A DNA stretch of 64,000 bases from Escherichia phage ECO4: sequence record NC_054911.1, one strand, 5' to 3'. The notes under the pieces were generated by a model. That model saw only the letters and a list, made by a program, of their open reading frames with translations, did not search any database and was not told the DNA's origin. Below, one piece after another: positions 42,122-54,698 of the stretch (position 1 is the stretch's first letter; each line of letters opens with the position of its first letter). Both the position numbers and the translations under genes were made by a program.

Positions 42122-43804
42122 TTAAACCATTACAGTAAATCGACCAACTTTCTTCATTTGAAGATGCTGACCATATTCTTGCGGGTCATGGTCTTTATGC
42201 GAAATTATAAAAACATTAGTGTTTTTCATTGAATTTATAATATTAGCTACACCTTTAATACCTTCGGCATCAAATGACCCATCAAACACTTCATCAAGAA
42301 TTAATGTATTAATACTAACACCAGATACGATAGAAGCAATATCACGCCAAGTAAATAAAAGAGCAATATCAATTCGTGCCTTTTCACCTTCACTAAATGA
42401 AGCATAACTAAAATCTTCACGACCACGGGATTTAATTGTCTCATTAAATTCTTCATCTAATGTAAACACATAATCCGCTTCCATTATTTTAAGATAATGG
42501 TTAATCTGCTTATTAAATAATGGAATGTACTTTTTAATAATAGCACCTTTAATACCAGAATCTTTGAGCATATCAGTCAAAATTCCTCGGTGGTATTTTT
42601 CCATTACTAAATTAGTTTTTGTCTTAACAATTTTATCAAGTTCTTCTTGAAGCAATGCTATTTCATCAGCATGGTCAATAAACTCGGATGATGCTTTTTC
42701 TATAGCTGCTTTAACTTTTTTAGCTTTATCTACTGTCGTGATTAGAGATTGCTTTTTATTGCGAATATCATTTGCCAACGACTGCTGGGTTTTAATATTA
42801 TCTCGGTATTCATCAACAAGAACTTTTAAATTATCACGGTGCGTTGAAAGCTGTTCAAACGAATGCGTACATTCAGAAACTTTATCTTTAATTTTAGAAA
42901 CAACTTTATCACCGGAACTTAATTGTGACAAACAGGTTGGACATAATCCACCTTCGTGATACATATTAATGACTTTATTATACGAGTCAATTTTTGATTT
43001 AATTAAAAATGCTTCTTGACCGATTTTATTAAATGCATCAGTCGGGTCTTCATCCAAAACAATATTAACTAATCTTTCATTAGCTTCTTCTATTTCCGAT
43101 TTTAACGTTCTAGCTTCTTTTGCCAAATCATCATACATATTTTGCAGACGAGTAAGGTTGTCACCCGTTAATTTTTTCTGGCGTTCAACGTTATCATTAT
43201 ATATTTTAATTTGTTGGATAATACTATCTTTTTTAACATCAAGCACTTGGTTTTGTGAATTTAATTCACGTATTAGTGCTTTATTAAGCTTATCCATTTC
43301 AGCTAATGTTCCTACCTCAAGCAGGTCTTCCACAAGCTTTCTTCGCGCAGGGGTCGACAAACCCATGAAAGGGGTATACCCTGCTGTACCAAGGACAACA
43401 ATCTGCTTGAAACTGGCATATGACATTCCGATAAGCTGTTCAAATTCTGCTTGGAAATCTTTACTGCTGGCAGATTCATTAAGACGTGTACCGTTAACGG
43501 TGATTTCGAAAACGTTTGGTTTTTGTCCTCTTTTGATATAGTACTTTTTCTCATCATATTCCATCCACAGTTCAACTAAAAGTTCTTTCTTATTTGTGCT
43601 GTTTATTAATTGACCTTTCTTTACATCACGGAATGGCTTGCCAAAAAGCCCAAATGTGATGGCTTCTAACATAGTAGACTTACCACCGCCATTTCGGCCA
43701 GTAATAAGAGTTTTTTGAACCTTATCTAATTGAATGTCAATAGGATTTCCACCTACTGACATTATATTTTGATACCTAACTCGGTTTAGTTTAAAATTCT
43801 TCAC
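42122..43804 (-). CDS. 46: Recombination endonuclease subunit gp46 (Rad50/SbcC-like)
   Basis: 560 aa, Walker A GRNGGGKST, coiled coil, CPTC zinc hook. Confidence 0.95.
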   Translation of the reverse strand: MKNFKLNRVRYQNIMSVGGNPIDIQLDKVQKTLITGRNGGGKSTMLEAITFGLFGKPFRDVKKGQLINSTNKKELLVELWMEYDEKKYYIKRGQKPNVFEITVNGTRLNESASSKDFQAEFEQLIGMSYASFKQIVVLGTAGYTPFMGLSTPARRKLVEDLLEVGTLAEMDKLNKALIRELNSQNQVLDVKKDSIIQQIKIYNDNVERQKKLTGDNLTRLQNMYDDLAKEARTLKSEIEEANERLVNIVLDEDPTDAFNKIGQEAFLIKSKIDSYNKVINMYHEGGLCPTCLSQLSSGDKVVSKIKDKVSECTHSFEQLSTHRDNLKVLVDEYRDNIKTQQSLANDIRNKKQSLITTVDKAKKVKAAIEKASSEFIDHADEIALLQEELDKIVKTKTNLVMEKYHRGILTDMLKDSGIKGAIIKKYIPLFNKQINHYLKIMEADYVFTLDEEFNETIKSRGREDFSYASFSEGEKARIDIALLFTWRDIASIVSGVSINTLILDEVFDGSFDAEGIKGVANIINSMKNTNVFIISHKDHDPQEYGQHLQMKKVGRFTVMV

Positions 43805-44064: not shown

Positions 44065-44251
44065 TATCTAAAATGTTGAAGTTAAAAGATACAGCCCAGT
44101 CAGTGCAGACCGTGACCTTTTTAATACAATTATCTTCAACCTCTAGCGGTTCAAACCAATATTCAATAATTTCTTTATGCCCAATATCATCTTTTACTTC
44201 GCATTCAAAATGCTGACTCATCATAACATTTTTAAATTCATCAAAAGTCAT
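43988..44251 (-). CDS. Hypothetical protein (87 aa)
   Basis: ORF; overlaps neighbour by 77 nt in another frame. Confidence 0.55.
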   Translation of the reverse strand: MTFDEFKNVMMSQHFECEVKDDIGHKEIIEYWFEPLEVEDNCIKKVTVCTDWAVSFNFNILDNDTPKSLRDMAVSCIKDAYCEVFDI

Positions 44252-45267
44252 TGTGTTGCCTCTACATATAACTGATTTGCATATTGAATAAGTGCTTCAC
44301 GGTCAGAATCAGTGATGTCTGGAATTGCATTAATGTATTCTTCCATCAACGTCTGAAGAGATTGAACTTCAACTTCTTCACTGTCATCTGACTCGACAGA
44401 GTTATCAATCTTTGACACAACTCGTAATGAATGCACAACTTTTTCTAGTTCAGATTCGAACTTCGTTAGATTTTTGTCTACTTCAGTTACTATAACACGT
44501 ACTGATAGATTTGTAAAATCTTTATAGTCAATTTTTCCTTTAAATGGATAATGAATTCTACGATGCCAGGTAGTGTTGTTTGGAATAAATTCCATTCGTT
44601 CTGTTTCTGTATCAAACATCCAGAACCCACGAGGGTCATTCTCGTCACCTGCAGTTAGTGTCCATGGTGTCCCAATATATCTGACGTTAGCAGCCTCAGA
44701 GATAGTATGGAAGTGACCAGACCACACCTCTTTATAAGTCTTAAGGAAATCAGGTTCAAGACCGTGAGATTTCATTCCTTTATAAAAATAAAATCCATTC
44801 AGTTCCCAGTGACCAACACAAAAAGAAGCAGATGAAGTTTTGATGTGCTCAAGAATTTCACCAGTATTTTCTTCGCACATCCAAGGAATTAAATCAATCA
44901 AACATCCGTCAAAATCTACTGTAGTAGGCTTATCATATACTTTAACATTAGGATATTTAGCCAAAAGCTCAGTAGAGGCATTTGGATGCATTACATTTTT
45001 GTAGTGGAGATCGTGATTTCCTACAATAGTATGTAATGTGATTCCAGCGTCATCAAGCATTTGAACTATTTCACGGGCAAACTCCATAGTTTTATGTGTG
45101 ATTGCTTTTCGCACATCAAAAATATCACCATATTGAATCCATACAGTAATTCCATTTTTCTTAGAATATTCTATCGCTTGCTTAATTCCATCAATTTGAA
45201 TACCGCGAATCCACTCATCATCAGCTTTAACGCCTAAATGCCAATCACCCAAGTTTAGTATTTTCAT
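44248..45267 (-). CDS. 47: Recombination endonuclease subunit gp47 (Mre11/SbcD-like)
   Basis: 339 aa, metallophosphatase motifs (GDWH, GNHD). Confidence 0.95.
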   Translation of the reverse strand: MKILNLGDWHLGVKADDEWIRGIQIDGIKQAIEYSKKNGITVWIQYGDIFDVRKAITHKTMEFAREIVQMLDDAGITLHTIVGNHDLHYKNVMHPNASTELLAKYPNVKVYDKPTTVDFDGCLIDLIPWMCEENTGEILEHIKTSSASFCVGHWELNGFYFYKGMKSHGLEPDFLKTYKEVWSGHFHTISEAANVRYIGTPWTLTAGDENDPRGFWMFDTETERMEFIPNNTTWHRRIHYPFKGKIDYKDFTNLSVRVIVTEVDKNLTKFESELEKVVHSLRVVSKIDNSVESDDSEEVEVQSLQTLMEEYINAIPDITDSDREALIQYANQLYVEATQ

Positions 45268-45868
45268 GGTGTCTTTTCCATCCTAATTTAGCTGCTTTTG
45301 AAACCAGTTCTTTAATTTTTCCTTTTGTCCATTCAGGACCAGGAGGTTCATGACATAACATTTGCTTAACTCCGTTATTATACCATTTTTTACCTTTATT
45401 ATGTGATGAAGCTTTAAATTTATTTGACCTTCCTTTTACATAACCTTCTGGAATATAAGGCAAAAAGGCAGATTTTCCTGTTAATGGATCATGTGAATGT
45501 ATATTTCCTTTACAATTATGAGAACCATATAATGGATGATTTTGTCCTTTATTATCTCTTCCAAATGAACCTTTTGGAGCAGCATATGACATATTAAAGA
45601 ATAATGGATTTTTAACTGCATCATGCAATCGTTGATAATATAACTCGCATTTAATAGCTTCTTCACGCGTATCAAATTCAGCTAAAATGCATGAATCAAA
45701 TAAGTGAGGATTATCTGAAAGCTCTTTATTATAAATTTTCTTATACTTTTTAGATAAAACTGAACCATGATATCCAGCTAAATGCCTATCTAAAGACGTA
45801 GATCCAATATAAAAAGGAGGAAGTTTATCTCCACTATATATTGTTAAATAAGTTATATATTTTTTCAT
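45245..45868 (-). CDS. GIY-YIG-like (Seg-type) homing endonuclease candidate, 207 aa
   Basis: N-terminal YITYLTIYSG...PFYIGST resembles GIY-YIG; basic NUMOD-like repeats (NPLYGSHN, GKKWYNNG); overlaps gene 47 start by 23 nt. Confidence 0.5.
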   Translation of the reverse strand: MKKYITYLTIYSGDKLPPFYIGSTSLDRHLAGYHGSVLSKKYKKIYNKELSDNPHLFDSCILAEFDTREEAIKCELYYQRLHDAVKNPLFFNMSYAAPKGSFGRDNKGQNHPLYGSHNCKGNIHSHDPLTGKSAFLPYIPEGYVKGRSNKFKASSHNKGKKWYNNGVKQMLCHEPPGPEWTKGKIKELVSKAAKLGWKRHHENTKLG

Positions 45869-46030
45869 ATATCAAGAACCGTCATTGAAATGCAAAATAA
45901 AATTATTGAAATAAACCCATCTGGTGTGCTAAAGAAACCAATCCAGCATGCTCTAGTGAATAGATAAAATGCAAGAAAAAGTATCACATATCCAAGAAAT
46001 ATCATTATATCAAACTCCGTATAAAGCTAA

Positions 46031-46050
46031 AGGGCCGAAGCCCTTTATTT
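46031..46050 (-). other. Hairpin AAAGGGCCGAAGCCCTTT overlapping the alpha-gt stop codon
   Basis: Exact GGGCCGAAGCCC core. Confidence 0.4.
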
Positions 46051-47247
46051 TGTAATAATGTCAAACTGTTCTTTAAAGCAGAAGCTTGAATCTTGATGCT
46101 GATACAAAAATTCATATGCTTTTTCTCGCTCACGGTCATAAAGAGCTCGGTCAGATGACAGTTCTTTAATACGTTCAAACGTTGATTCCATATCATTTTC
46201 ATCAAACCAAATGATACCGCTATCATGCGAGGTCAAAGGAGTATTATCAACACGGAATTTTAAATTTTCGCCAGTAGATTTCCAAAATACCGGAATTGTT
46301 CCACATGCACCAAGCTCGAGATGAGTATATTCTAAAGAACGTTGTAGATATTTTTTATCCAACTTACTCAGCTGATAACCAAATCCGGATTTACTCATGC
46401 GTTCAAGCATTTCGCTATTTACATAACGGTCAAGAATTTGCGTTGGCAAATTAGGAGCAATTTTAATTTGGTCTACTTGATGAAGACGATAATACTCGTA
46501 TGGAATTCCTTTTTCTTTAATAGGAATGAACGCTGGAGAACGTTCCAGACCTTCCATAATAGTACTTAGTCCTGCAGGTTTAAGATGTTTTTCATGAAAA
46601 TCAAACATCTGATAAAAACCTTTCCATGTAGTCGTACGACCAATCCAACGGTTGATATTCATGTTAATTTCAGAAACATCTTTCCAGTAGGTTGATCTAA
46701 CCTTCGCAATATCCATAGGAGGCTGAAAGTTATATACTGTCGGTGCTTCTTCAATATCATCAAACAGAGAAACTGTTTCAGGATACCATTCTTTCATCAG
46801 AACTTTATTAAAATCACCATTATCAGAATGGCTAAAAATAACATCAGCTCGACGAACAGTTTCTTCTAATCCCAAATTTCGACGCAAAGAAAGAGAAGAA
46901 TGGTCATGTTGATAAACTACAACACGAACAGAAGGTTTAATGTTATCAATAATTTTTTTATAGTTATTAATAGTGTCTTCTTCAACCGAAGTAGCAGGAA
47001 CTGAATTAATAATTAGAATATCACAATCATTTACCAGCTTAAGTGTTTTATCATATTCTTTTGCCAATAAAACCGGAATTGAAAATGATTTATAATCATG
47101 CGCGCAATTACGAGTAAATGATTTATCTTTAGCATAAACCAAAGTTACTTCATGACCATTTTTAATAAACCAATCACGCTGCTCAAGAGAAAATTTAGTT
47201 ACACCGCAACCTTCAAGACCCCGAGCCAGAAAAATGCATACTTTCAT
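46045..47247 (-). CDS. a-gt: Alpha-glucosyltransferase
   Basis: 400 aa, matches T4 alpha-gt. Confidence 0.9.
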   Translation of the reverse strand: MKVCIFLARGLEGCGVTKFSLEQRDWFIKNGHEVTLVYAKDKSFTRNCAHDYKSFSIPVLLAKEYDKTLKLVNDCDILIINSVPATSVEEDTINNYKKIIDNIKPSVRVVVYQHDHSSLSLRRNLGLEETVRRADVIFSHSDNGDFNKVLMKEWYPETVSLFDDIEEAPTVYNFQPPMDIAKVRSTYWKDVSEINMNINRWIGRTTTWKGFYQMFDFHEKHLKPAGLSTIMEGLERSPAFIPIKEKGIPYEYYRLHQVDQIKIAPNLPTQILDRYVNSEMLERMSKSGFGYQLSKLDKKYLQRSLEYTHLELGACGTIPVFWKSTGENLKFRVDNTPLTSHDSGIIWFDENDMESTFERIKELSSDRALYDREREKAYEFLYQHQDSSFCFKEQFDIITK

Positions 47248-47490
47248 TTAATATCCTCATTGTTTTGGTTTATTTTACCAAAAATTTATAAAGCAATATA
47301 GGAGCCGAAGCTCCTATCCACATAATACGCCATACAAAGGCTCATTAGAGCTTCTAAATTTTCTGCGCCTATATGTTATAGTTCCTTCTGCTTTAGCTTT
47401 ATCGTAAGACTCTTTAAAGCGTCTCATCATTTCTACTTTAGAGGAACGAATTTTATTATAATCTATTTCAGAAGTCTGGGTGTTCATCTT

Positions 47491-51590: not shown

Positions 51591-52061
51591 TTAATCATGT
51601 TTCCACACCCCATCGGTATTTGACCAAAGTCGCTGATTATCTGATCCTCGCCACAGCTTTTTGGTCGGAAGATTTTTCTCATACTTCCCATCAATAATAA
51701 CATCAACATATTTAAGCATTTCTAGTTGTTTAATATCTTCAAACTTATATCCTGTCCACAACCAAATGCTTTTATTGGGATAAAGATTTTTAACTGTTTG
51801 AACGATGCAATGAATCACGTCTCTGTTATCAGGATAAAGAGGGTCACCTCCGGTTATAGTTAATCCTTCTATATAATCATTATTCAAACATTCAATTAAT
51901 TGTTCTAGTGTTTCACCAGTGAATGGAATACCATTTCTAGCATTCCATGTTGATTTATTATAACACCCTTCGCATTTATGCAAACAACCTGTAACGAAAA
52001 GAACGACCCTGCATCCAGGGCCATTAACAAAGCAGCACGGGTATATTCTGTCATAATTCAT
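51591..52061 (-). CDS. nrdG: Anaerobic ribonucleotide reductase activating protein NrdG (radical SAM)
   Basis: 156 aa from ATG 52061; CLHKCEGC iron-sulfur motif; ATG overlaps stop of upstream endonuclease ORF. Confidence 0.9.
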   Translation of the reverse strand: MNYDRIYPCCFVNGPGCRVVLFVTGCLHKCEGCYNKSTWNARNGIPFTGETLEQLIECLNNDYIEGLTITGGDPLYPDNRDVIHCIVQTVKNLYPNKSIWLWTGYKFEDIKQLEMLKYVDVIIDGKYEKNLPTKKLWRGSDNQRLWSNTDGVWKHD

Positions 52062-52888
52062 AATAATATCCAATTTTTCCAAGCTTCATCAGTAGAATTA
52101 CAGCGTTTTAGTATAAGATGTCTAGAAACTTTTATGGCATTTGAGCACTTTTTAATTGAATCATATTTAATACCGTCAACTGAAACGGTTTTGCTAATTG
52201 GAGAAATTTTTCCATACATTGGATTTTTTGAACCAACTTGAAGTCCTTTTAAAGCTTTTGAAAGCTTTTGTCTAGATTCCAATGACATGGGAGAATTCTT
52301 TTTACCTTCAATAATTCGCTTGCGATGAAGTTCGCGTTCTTCTTCACTCAAAGAATTGTAATATTTTTTAACACCGTTTGATATAGATAATTTATCTTTC
52401 TCAGACCGCTCTCCAGCTAATTTACTTCTAACATCTTTTCGCTTCATAGCTATGCTTACGGCTTTATTTAAATTTGCTTGATGCTCTGGCGTACGTTTAT
52501 ATTTCTTTAAAGCACGTGAAATAGCTATTTTAGTTTCTTCTGTTCTCTTTTTACCTTTATTTGCTAAACTATTTTTGCGGCGATGTTCAAGTGTCTGTTC
52601 ATAGGCAGTTCCACCTTTTCCACCAGGTTTAATATTATATGTATTTTCTTTTAGACAATACTCTTCGGTTACAAGTTCAGCTTCTTTATCATACATCTGT
52701 TTTTCATTATCAAAAACATGTAAAATTTCTTTATTAAAATTTTTTCTACCATATTTTAATAAAGCGGCACGAATCAATGTTCCTGACCCCATATAACCGT
52801 CATTTATGTTATCGGTGCTATGCGCACCGATATATTCCTTTGAATTAATTATATTTGTTATTTTATAAATTATATAATACCTATGCAT
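52058..52888 (-). mobile_element. Free-standing GIY-YIG homing endonuclease (276 aa) between nrdD and nrdG
   Basis: N-terminus YIIYKITNIINSKEYIGAH (GIY-YIG), NUMOD3-like repeats, C-terminal HTH-like VDGIKYDSIKKCSNAIKVSRHLILKRCNS resembling I-TevI architecture. Confidence 0.75.
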
Positions 52889-54698
52889 GTTTTACTCGTT
52901 TTACCATTTCTTTCATTTTACCTAAATTCCATGGAACAACGCTAGGAGTTCCAAGATATCCGCATGTTCTTCTTATTGTATTCATCTTTTTAGGATCAGT
53001 TTCTCCACAAATAGAACAAATAAATCCGCTTTCAGTAGGAGTCATTTCATGGGTGCTTCCGCATGTAAAACATTTATCTACTGGCATATTAACACCAAAA
53101 TAATCTAAATGTTGTGCAGCATAATCCCATACGGCCTCAAGACCCTTTAAGTTATTTTTCATATCAGGAAGTTCAACATAAGAAATGTGACCACCTGTCG
53201 CAATGAAATGATATGGTGCTTCTCGAGAAATCTTTTCAAACGGAGTAATATTTTCTTCTACTGAAACATGGAAACTGTTAGTGTACCAGCCTTTATCAGT
53301 AACATCCTTTACACTTCCATATTTTTCTGTATCAAGTTTACAGAAGCGATAACAAAGGTTTTCAGCAGGAGTCGAATATAAACTAAAAGCAAATCCAGTT
53401 CTTTCAGTCCACTGTTTAAGATGAGCATTCATTTTAGTTAAAATTTCTTGCCCGATATCACGTCCAACAAGAATATTCAATTCATGAATACCAATGTATC
53501 CTAGGGACACTGAACTTCTACCGTTTTTAAATAACTCAATTATGTCGTCATCAGGTTTAAGACGAACCCCGAATGCACCTTCTTGGTAAAGAATAGGAGC
53601 AACAGTCGCTTTAACTCCTTTTAAGGAACTAATTCTACACATCAAAGCTTCAAAACACAAATCCATACGTTCATTGAATAATTCAACAAATTTCTGTTCG
53701 TTAAATTGTGTTCCAATATAAGAATCTAATGCAATGCGAGGAAGATTCAGTGTTACAACACCAAGATTATTACGTCCATCAAGAATTTCATTACCAGTCG
53801 AATCTTTCCATACGCTCAAGAAACTACGGCAACCCATTGGAGAAACAGGAATAGATGAACCGGTGATAGCTTTATTATTCTTAACTGAAATAATATCAGG
53901 ATACATCCTTTTGCTTGCACACTCTAGAGCAAGCTGCTTAATATCATAGTTCGGATCGTCTTTATAAAGATTAACGCCTTCTTCAACGAACATAACAAGT
54001 TTAGGAAAAATAGGAGTTATCCCATCACGACCAAGACCTTTAATACGATTTTTCAGAATTGCTTTCTGAATCATTCGTTCAGTCCAGTCAGTTCCCGTAC
54101 CAAATGTAATTGTTACAAAGGGAGTCTGTCCGTTTGAACTAAAGAGAGTATTTACTTCATATTCATAAGCTTGGAATGCATCGTATACGTCTTTTTCTGT
54201 TTTAGATTGGGCATAATTCAGTGCATCGGCGATTTGCCATTTTTCTGCGTCCTCGATATGTTTTGCATAGGTGCGTTTAACATAAGGAGAAAGTACTTTA
54301 TCTACATTAGCAAAAGTCGTTCCGCCATATTGATGGGAAGCAACTTGCGCAGTAATTTGTGCCATAATTGCAGTAGCAACGCCAATTGATTTAGGAGTTT
54401 CAATCTGTGCATTACCAAGCTTAAATCCGTTTTCAAGCATTCCTTTTAAATCTACTAAACAACAATTAGTAAATGGAAGAGCAGGGGAATAATCAATATC
54501 ATGGAAATGAATAATTCCGCTTTCATGCGCTTTCATAATAAAAGACGGGACCATATTTTTGGCAATGTGTTTAGACACAATACCAGCCATAAGGTCCCGT
54601 TGAGTTGGAAAAACACGAGAATCTTTATTAGCATTCTCGTTTAAAAGGTCTTTATTAGTTTTATGAATCAATCCTTCAATTTCTTTTTCAATTGTCAT
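52881..54698 (-). CDS. nrdD: Anaerobic ribonucleoside-triphosphate reductase NrdD (class III), intronless
   Basis: 605 aa continuous ORF; C-terminal glycyl-radical motif RRTCGYLG. Confidence 0.95.
   Translation of the reverse strand: MTIEKEIEGLIHKTNKDLLNENANKDSRVFPTQRDLMAGIVSKHIAKNMVPSFIMKAHESGIIHFHDIDYSPALPFTNCCLVDLKGMLENGFKLGNAQIETPKSIGVATAIMAQITAQVASHQYGGTTFANVDKVLSPYVKRTYAKHIEDAEKWQIADALNYAQSKTEKDVYDAFQAYEYEVNTLFSSNGQTPFVTITFGTGTDWTERMIQKAILKNRIKGLGRDGITPIFPKLVMFVEEGVNLYKDDPNYDIKQLALECASKRMYPDIISVKNNKAITGSSIPVSPMGCRSFLSVWKDSTGNEILDGRNNLGVVTLNLPRIALDSYIGTQFNEQKFVELFNERMDLCFEALMCRISSLKGVKATVAPILYQEGAFGVRLKPDDDIIELFKNGRSSVSLGYIGIHELNILVGRDIGQEILTKMNAHLKQWTERTGFAFSLYSTPAENLCYRFCKLDTEKYGSVKDVTDKGWYTNSFHVSVEENITPFEKISREAPYHFIATGGHISYVELPDMKNNLKGLEAVWDYAAQHLDYFGVNMPVDKCFTCGSTHEMTPTESGFICSICGETDPKKMNTIRRTCGYLGTPSVVPWNLGKMKEMVKRVKHA

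Follow-up and report, generated by a model that had tools for sequence, protein, structure and literature searches.

What is the open reading frame (ORF) that separates gene 47.1 from gene 47 in Escherichia phage ECO4, and how is it connected with the genes between which it lies? The stretch of DNA analyzed here, referred to as the window, comprises 64,000 nucleotides (nt) of sequence record NC_054911.1, and the ORF occupies positions 45245-45868 on its minus strand. The window is a segment of a Tequatrovirus (T4-like) genome; when 3.4 kb around the ORF was used as query, 596 phage records matched, the best of them at 98.6% identity. It is known that T4-like phages owe their differences mainly to genes of the homing endonuclease type. 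An original prediction, made from the sequence alone, had described the ORF as a Seg-like insertion, and our analysis indicates with good confidence that it is a free-standing, Seg-type homing endonuclease gene (HEG, the name used for this ORF throughout) with a GIY-YIG nuclease domain. Its target is probably gene 47.

An insertion at the gene 47.1/47 junction

On the minus strand the genes follow in the order a-gt, 47.1, HEG, gene 47, 46.2, 46.1 and 46, and HEG has the orientation of its neighbours. The ORF runs from ATG to TGA and encodes the predicted 207 amino acids (aa). As had been proposed, the protein is basic, with an isoelectric point (pI) of 9.6 overall and 10.0 in the C-terminal half, and with 34 lysine and arginine versus 18 aspartate and glutamate residues. 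It is not a chance ORF, because the identical protein is present on 82 public contigs and the ratio of non-synonymous to synonymous substitution rates (dN/dS) between the two Tequatrovirus HEG clades, which share about 96% nt identity, is 0.04-0.07. Downstream, HEG adjoins gene 47 (44248-45267, minus strand), which encodes the Mre11/SbcD-like nuclease subunit (Pfam Metallophos, 2.6e-8; T4 annotation) and is both its constant downstream neighbour and its predicted target. The proposed position between gene 47 and a-gt is correct for gene 47, but a-gt does not abut HEG directly: gene 47.1 (45865-46005, minus strand), an ORF for a 46-aa predicted membrane protein that is also annotated in T4, lies between HEG and the conserved upstream gene a-gt (46045-47247, minus strand), which codes for the DNA alpha-glucosyltransferase (Pfam AGT, E=1.8e-237).

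In T4 (NC_000866), where HEG is absent, the stop codon of 47.1 overlaps the ATG of gene 47 (ATGA) with nothing between the two genes. Alignment with T4 places a net insertion of 601 nt in the window exactly at this junction. Such a clean insertion agrees with the origin claimed for the ORF, and neither of the results named in the original prediction as speaking against it, a lack of the conserved catalytic Arg/Glu or orthologues with a non-nuclease fold at this position in all relatives, was found. At the upstream end, the ATG of HEG overlaps the 47.1 stop codon (ATGA), and the heptamer ATGAAAA at the HEG start (45862-45868, minus strand) is a direct repeat of ATGAAAA at the start of gene 47 (45261-45267). 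At the downstream end, the expected overlap of 23 nt between the 3' end of HEG and codons 1-8 of gene 47 is present (45245-45267, minus strand), and the TGA of HEG lies within the Gly7-Asp8 codons of the GDWH motif of gp47. The native start context of gene 47 has been replaced by the insertion, and the gene now starts inside the last HEG codons. In addition, codons 3-6 of gene 47 carry four synonymous differences from T4 (45250, 45253, 45258 and 45259, minus strand), reading ATA CTA AAC TTG in the window and ATT TTA AAT TTA in T4.

This overlap is not confined to Tequatrovirus. Homologues in Salmonella phage SEA1 and Aeromonas phage avDM2 share the identical 23-nt overlap with gene 47; by genus, the overlap is 23 nt in two other genera and 14 nt in a third. 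The C-terminal (H/N)EN of the protein family is the reading of C-ATG-AAA-AT, the start of gene 47, in the other frame, and it is kept in the homologues of other genera.

The nuclease domain

The N-terminal domain (aa 1-97; 45578-45868, minus strand) has the topology beta-beta-alpha-alpha-beta-alpha and contains Y11, Y20-I21-G22, R28, E75 and N92. At its N-terminus T9-I10-Y11 is followed, after 8 aa, by Y20-I21-G22, and the sole Pfam match of the protein is GIY-YIG (PF01541; 21.4 bits, E=3.1e-4). This score is within the range of the T4 Seg enzymes, because SegC, SegB and SegA reach 19.9, 28.3 and 37.4 bits on the same model; a review counts all three among the active homing endonucleases. For the family we aligned 39 sequences, the query and 38 relatives with identities down to 35%, of which 14 match Pfam GIY-YIG. 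All 38 sequences that cover this region have Y11, Y20, I21 and G22, and E75 and N92 are invariant in 39 of 39. An AlphaFold2 model built with the 39 homologues has a mean predicted local distance difference test score (pLDDT) of 84.9, and residues 1-95 reach 93-98 with the topology given above. The best Foldseek match of the model in the PDB is the I-TevI catalytic domain (probability 0.99, template modelling score 0.60), and all structure matches are GIY-YIG proteins. Motif, Pfam match (E=3e-4) and fold thus support the GIY-YIG-like N-terminus that had been read from the sequence. Searches with the single HEG protein were less informative, as the PDB returned chance matches to ribosomal proteins only and NCBIfam nothing relevant.

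With regard to the catalytic residues, hhalign places E75 on E75 of I-TevI in a weak alignment of the family profile (31 columns, E=0.27), which is useful for positioning this residue and is not evidence of homology by itself. MAFFT places Y20, H34 and N92 on Y17, H40 and N90 of I-TevI, whose sequence was compared with PDB 1MK0. In I-TevI, N90 has a metal- or structure-supporting role. The catalytic Glu on which the original prediction had made its claim depend is therefore conserved, while for the Arg the picture is mixed: the HEG protein has R28, and its relatives have Lys, Arg or Asn. R28 lies 8 residues past the Tyr of YIG, compared with 10 in I-TevI. Since T4 SegA, SegB and SegC have an equally short helix 1, with a 9-aa gap against I-TevI, and share the '..GY.GS' motif, the short helix in the Arg region is, as far as the sequences indicate, a trait of the subfamily and no sign of decay. 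R68, which is basic in 39 of 39 sequences, might stand in for the canonical Arg.

The names in the databases would suggest a different enzyme. Many RefSeq records carry 'HNH endonuclease' as product name, and the best PHROG match, phrog_10820 (1e-94), bears the same label, followed by phrog_314 (5e-18, 'homing endonuclease'). No Pfam HNH model matches the protein even at E<=10, however, fold and motifs are those of GIY-YIG enzymes, and UniRef uses the name 'GIY-YIG domain-containing protein'. We give an HNH endonuclease practically no credence; fold and motif results already refute this identity.

The C-terminal half

The original prediction had also seen NUMOD-like repeats in the protein, which was not borne out. 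The Pfam NUMOD3 model finds a partial match of 10 residues with 10 bits and E=0.88 against a cut-off of 20.4, which corresponds to a half motif, NKGQNHPLYG, in the linker (45524-45556, minus strand) and appears vestigial. True NUMOD3 is found in 17 of the 39 aligned sequences, and their full repeats begin at the NKGQNHPLYG position. According to the model, the C-terminal half consists of two beta-hairpin repeats and a helix, all of them predicted. The first predicted hairpin (45428-45508, minus strand; both models place strands at aa 123-126 and 133-136) ends in ..IPEGYVKGR and resembles the SegB C-terminus ..PIPEGWFKGRK. The second, KWYNNG..PGPEWTKGK (45314-45394, minus strand; strands at aa 161-164 and 169-172), has K, W, G and W as nearly invariant positions in alignment A2. 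The predicted C-terminal alpha-helix (aa 186-203; 45260-45313, minus strand) ends in ..WKRHHEN, which is dual-coded with the gene 47 start. Neither a scoring NUMOD3 nor a helix-turn-helix was detected in this half. We infer that it binds DNA.

A relative with another tail is found in Yersinia phage TG1 (gp009, P0040; L050, 1998-2681). This paralogue lies upstream of the gene for the large subunit of topoisomerase II, which it overlaps by 8 nt, near the site where T4 carries mobA. Its nuclease domain is near-identical to that of HEG at an overall identity of 45%, and its NUMOD3-containing tail ends like the C-terminus of SegA, which would fit retargeting through a tail swap. The 'HNH endonuclease' mislabel occurs here as well, in a record whose own note says GIY-YIG.

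Distribution and probable recent movement

Of about 540 related phage records, 67 contain the 597 nt specific to HEG (about 12%, or roughly 1 in 8), and 64 of these copies are full length. The intact T4-type 47.1/47 junction is found in 459 phage records, including T2, RB3 and RB51, and HEG is absent from T4, T2, T6 and RB51. Carriers and uninterrupted junctions side by side, together with the GIY-YIG fold, speak against orthologues with a non-nuclease fold in all relatives. Using gp47 for a scan of IMG/VR, we obtained 28 loci, of which 6 belong to Tequatrovirus, all without HEG; these served as HEG-less controls and are too few for statistics. Among the proteins of the window itself, phmmer found no paralogue of the HEG protein; the Seg-like ORF at 52058-52888 has diverged too far for a match.

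Outside Tequatrovirus, homologues with 49-80% identity were found in five other genera, each time directly upstream of gene 47, namely in SEA1 (Gelderlandvirus), KPV15 (Jiaodavirus, fragmented), LC53 (Winklervirus), QL01 (Dhakavirus) and Aeromonas phage avDM2 (Biquartavirus). The gene upstream of these homologues varies among the five genera, and a-gt is often absent. As the upstream neighbours vary and gene 47 always adjoins, gene 47 is the constant partner of HEG.

Most HEG copies are intact. Frameshifted or truncated copies are present in ERS-1 (frameshift), KMB22 and ZCEC15/ESh36, where some frameshifts may be sequencing errors, and internal deletions in KNP1 and KNP5. The empty sites of SHFML-26 and UGKSEcP2 are the exact product expected from a deletion between the two ATGAAAA repeats. 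A comparison of phage fPS-90 with the window revealed 2 differences in 597 nt of HEG (0.34%) next to a divergence of 11.7% in a-gt. In BASEL phage PaulHMueller and in teqhad, HEG showed no difference over these 597 nt.

The capture of the gene 47 start allows another explanation for the persistence of HEG. It could be a former homing endonuclease, with a nuclease that is inactive or irrelevant, which is kept since its 3' end now contains the translation-initiation region and initial codons of gene 47, a gene essential for recombination, so that a clean loss would rarely be tolerated. The start of gene 47 within the HEG ORF, the tail ..W(K/E)R..(H/N)EN that is conserved across genera, the lack of conservation of the canonical Arg and the occurrence of several degenerate copies would all be in line with such a history. 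On the other hand, the low dN/dS reflects purifying selection over the whole protein and not over the tail alone, and the catalytic Glu, the Asn and both Tyr are invariant down to 35% identity. Furthermore, the precise empty sites imply that loss is possible, and the patchy distribution in combination with near-identical HEG copies beside very different a-gt alleles points to recent movement. Hence, retention of a defunct enzyme for the sake of gene 47 seems unlikely to us, and we prefer the interpretation as a homing endonuclease.

Two allele classes in the 5' part of gene 47

To compare carriers with non-carriers we used 21 aligned loci, 9 with and 12 without HEG. Two allele classes can be distinguished in the first 300 nt or so of gene 47: every one of the 9 carriers has class A, and the non-carriers divide into 5 with class A and 7 with class B. 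T4 and T2, with T4-type codons, belong to class A, and T6 and RB51 to class B. Between nt 150 and 300 of the gene, diversity among carriers is 1.1-1.8%, compared with 10-11.6% between carriers and non-carriers. Past nt 300 of gene 47, in 47.1 and in a-gt, no association with HEG was found in these loci. The 22 fixed differences between the classes lie in the stretch from nt 62 to 281 (44987-45206, minus strand), which is the second candidate target and co-conversion tract. Database-wide, the tract of the sampled HEG carriers is 96.9-100% identical to the window, and in 258 HEG-less records, including T6, the identity is 80-90%. Co-conversion on the side of gene 47 would be expected to leave such a footprint.

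Three further observations concern the variability of this region. Across Tequatrovirus, about 226 records are at least 95% identical to positions 44945-45267 of the window and 258 records are 80-90% identical. The class A and B proteins differ by 11 amino acids within codons 9-118, and several of these changes lie near the GNHD motif. The gene a-gt is dimorphic as well (46333-47108), with T4, fPS-90 and ERS-1 differing from the window by 8-12%, mostly in the gene centre, and most others by 1.4-3.4%, and this dimorphism is unrelated to the presence of HEG.

The local nature of the signal also bears on the question of whether a GIY-YIG nuclease at this place might serve a purpose other than homing, such as degradation of competitor phage DNA with a different cytosine modification, counter-defence or repression of transcription. 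In Tequatrovirus HEG is located near a-gt, a review describes I-TevI as a repressor, and one recent publication (PMC13096335) ties SegB to the amplification of anti-defence genes. However, a-gt is often missing beside the homologues in other genera, where gene 47 alone is constant, PADLOC yields a weak 'homing endonuclease' match only, and the population signal is confined to the 5' tract of gene 47, as homing predicts. We regard such a role as very unlikely; membership of HEG in a defence system was ruled out on the basis of PADLOC.

Candidate target sites and the proposed homing pathway

Two candidate cleavage sites emerge from these comparisons. Site (a) would be the 47.1/47 junction together with codons 3-6 of gene 47, and site (b) the variable blocks at nt 62-75 (45193-45206) and nt 225-281 (44987-45043) of the gene, the latter a cluster of class A/B differences that surrounds the GNHD phosphoesterase motif. 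In favour of site (a), HEG carriers are set apart from class A non-carriers, T4 among them, by a single fixed difference, the recoded codons 3-6. The recoding occurs in 75 records, and HEG is present in about 66 of them (a number derived from counts by organism name), and Dhakavirus QL01 likewise shows four synonymous differences from its HEG-less relatives in codons 3-6. According to a review, the free-standing endonucleases of T4 cut hundreds to thousands of base pairs away from their own gene, and the distance of site (b) from the insertion is typical of them.

Homing would proceed by the following route. During co-infection with an HEG-less relative, the enzyme would cut the DNA of the relative in or beside the 5' part of gene 47. 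The break would then be resected, the phage recombination machinery would repair it with the HEG-carrying genome as template, and this repair would copy HEG and up to about 300 nt of adjoining gene 47 into the recipient, which amounts to intronless homing with localised marker exclusion. The DNA of the carrier would be spared through disruption of its site by the insertion, alteration of the site, or both. The gene 47 recombination nuclease itself is listed in a review as only possibly contributing to homing.

A number of observations weigh against this interpretation. With regard to the protein, the Pfam GIY-YIG score lies below the gathering cut-off of 22.6 bits, a sequence search of the PDB with the 39-sequence family profile gave no match, the canonical R27 of I-TevI is not alignable and falls in a 9-aa gap, and the R28 column holds Lys in 21, Arg in 10, Asn in 6 and other residues in 2 of the 39 sequences. 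With regard to mobility, the HEG clade with 96% identity is more diverged than its flanking gene 47, the database records are not independent, and the link with class A could reflect shared ancestry of the carriers rather than co-conversion. Recoded codons also occur at empty sites (about 9 records from database counts, with SHFML-26 and UGKSEcP2 as examples), the frameshifted copy of ERS-1 is accompanied by T4-type codons, and SEA1 is unrecoded, with a gene 47 5' sequence equal to that of an HEG-less relative. Finally, we found no paper that names or describes the HEG protein or tests it experimentally for cleavage, homing or marker exclusion.

The idea that the four recoded codons are a strict immunity marker was abandoned in view of SHFML-26, UGKSEcP2 and ERS-1. 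In UGKSEcP2 (L040) and SHFML-26 (L038) the junctions lie at about position 2500, and downstream of its recoded empty site UGKSEcP2 has a class B allele, suggestive of a recombinant.

Taken together, the observations allow a more specific and more tentative reading, which we consider possible rather than probable. HEG would then represent a Seg lineage specific for gene 47, with the Tequatrovirus example as founding member, and would depart from the characterised Seg enzymes of T4 in three respects. Its target would be its own insertion site, comprising the 47.1/47 junction along with the initial gene 47 codons, as is the case for intron-encoded enzymes. The 3' end of the gene would be dual-coded with the start codon and the translation-initiation region of the target in at least four genera, one of them infecting Aeromonas, and the DNA would be read by a previously undescribed module of two beta-hairpins instead of NUMOD3 or a helix-turn-helix. 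If this were true, loss of HEG would be tied to the expression of the recombination nuclease gp47.

Expression of the inserted gene

A scan for sigma-70 promoters showed no enrichment over shuffled sequences (7 found, 7.0 expected), and no evident promoter of HEG itself was found. Just upstream of 47.1, a hairpin terminator after a-gt (46028-46047) is combined with a middle-promoter-like element, GCTT-N14-TATAAT (46004-46027), both on the minus strand and identified from the sequence and a terminator scan. The homologous SA20RB record annotates this middle promoter and the terminator. A transcript that starts from the T4 middle-promoter-like element and contains 47.1, HEG and gene 47 is therefore probable. 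According to a review, promoter-less cassettes are common among the free-standing endonucleases of T4.

Other homing endonuclease loci in the region

The designation of HEG as the second GIY-YIG-like ORF is fair, as a canonical Seg-type ORF of 276 aa is located at 52058-52888 (minus strand), presumably the one counted as first. It matches T4 SegC, SegB and SegA with E-values from 4e-32 to 2e-28 and contains NUMOD3 and an I-TevI-type DNA-binding domain. This ORF lies between an nrdG-like (51591-52082) and an nrdD-like ORF (52881-54698), where T4 has the HNH gene mobC, and we take it to resemble the published replacement of mobC by segH. The nrdD-like ORF (minus strand) is a single uninterrupted frame of 605 aa and T4 nrdD is split by an intron carrying I-TevII; therefore, this phage seems to be without the T4 nrdD intron.

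Closer to HEG, within 2 kb, mobB is missing between a-gt and an a-gt.2-like ORF (47248-47313), where T4 has this HNH gene of 795 nt. A separate 'homing endonuclease' insertion of about 855 nt between 46.1 and 46 occurs in SHFML-26 (L038, 3964-4818), PhiZZ23 (L044, 683-1537), T2 and RB51; it consists of two ORFs in T2 (L046, 4779-5631) and forms an unannotated gap in RB51 (L047, 4783-5647). The window does not carry this insertion, and 46.1 overlaps 46 at 43801-43804.

Annotation and significance

HEG is an uncharacterised Seg-like GIY-YIG homing endonuclease whose exact protein is already public under vague or wrong names. Motifs, the Glu and Asn residues, fold, discrete insertion and scattered presence at a conserved site group it with the free-standing Seg enzymes of T4. 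It is now called 'HNH endonuclease' or 'hypothetical' in dozens of therapeutic or model coliphages, and the product should read 'GIY-YIG (Seg-like) homing endonuclease'. The gene can also be overlooked: phage GiZh (NC_054903) has an intact 207-aa HEG (L037, about 1877-2500) that is unannotated in RefSeq, and its record shows an 'empty' gap of 777 nt between a-gt and gene 47.

The current understanding of homing endonucleases is not changed by HEG. It adds an element of the seg type at a position that T4, T2 and T6 leave unoccupied, and may be the reason why the first 300 nt or so of gene 47 come in two allele classes that differ sharply. For mixed infections, localised marker exclusion is predicted around genes 47 and 46, which is relevant when phage cocktails or engineered T4-like phages recombine. 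One nuclease domain combined with several tails at different genes would be a natural case of targets changed through domain exchange and might supply new compact DNA-targeting modules. Of modest interest are the fidelity to gene 47 across genera, the dual-coded overlap with its start and the unassigned, putatively DNA-binding tail.

Comparison with known homing endonucleases

In structure, the HEG protein resembles the I-TevI catalytic domain (PDB 1MK0/1LN0). Y17, H40, E75 and N90 of I-TevI align to Y20, H34, E75 and N92 of the HEG protein, and both proteins have a two-domain layout like beads on a string. In contrast to HEG, I-TevI is intron-encoded, its helix 1 with R27 is longer by 9 aa, and its tail is composed of a zinc finger, a NUMOD3 helix and a helix-turn-helix. 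No such module was detected in the HEG protein; sequence identity is 19-22%.

In its genetic setting HEG resembles SegA, SegB and SegC of T4. Like these, it is a free-standing gene at an intergenic junction, follows the orientation of its neighbours and is patchily distributed among relatives. The proteins share the N-terminal GIY-YIG domain with a short spacer after YIG and the 'GY.GS' motif (YIGSTS....GYHGS in HEG, YIGVHST..DDGYMGSG in SegB and SegC) as well as a basic C-terminal half, in which ..PIPEGWFKGRK of SegB resembles ..PEGYVKGR and ..PEWTKGK of HEG. Nevertheless, the similarity is marginal, with 10-18 bits against the family profile and no phmmer match, and HEG occupies the 47.1/47 site without a scoring NUMOD3 or helix-turn-helix tail, its nuclease activity being a predicted one.

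The relation to the neighbouring gene recalls SegF (gene 56) and SegG (gene 32) of T4, which are likewise promoter-less cassettes that abut or overlap a conserved gene of replication or recombination; in T4 the overlap of segF with gene 56 is 11 nt. A further parallel is the predicted effect, in which a few hundred nt of the adjoining gene would be co-converted. HEG differs from both in lying upstream of its presumed target gene and in being dual-coded with the start codon of that target, and measurements of cleavage site and exclusion exist for SegF and SegG, whereas for HEG both are predicted.

Another counterpart is the TG1 paralogue gp009, which like HEG is free-standing, has a near-identical N-terminal domain and overlaps a downstream gene. 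It differs in its NUMOD3 tail with a SegA-like end and in its location at a topoisomerase II site instead of gene 47.

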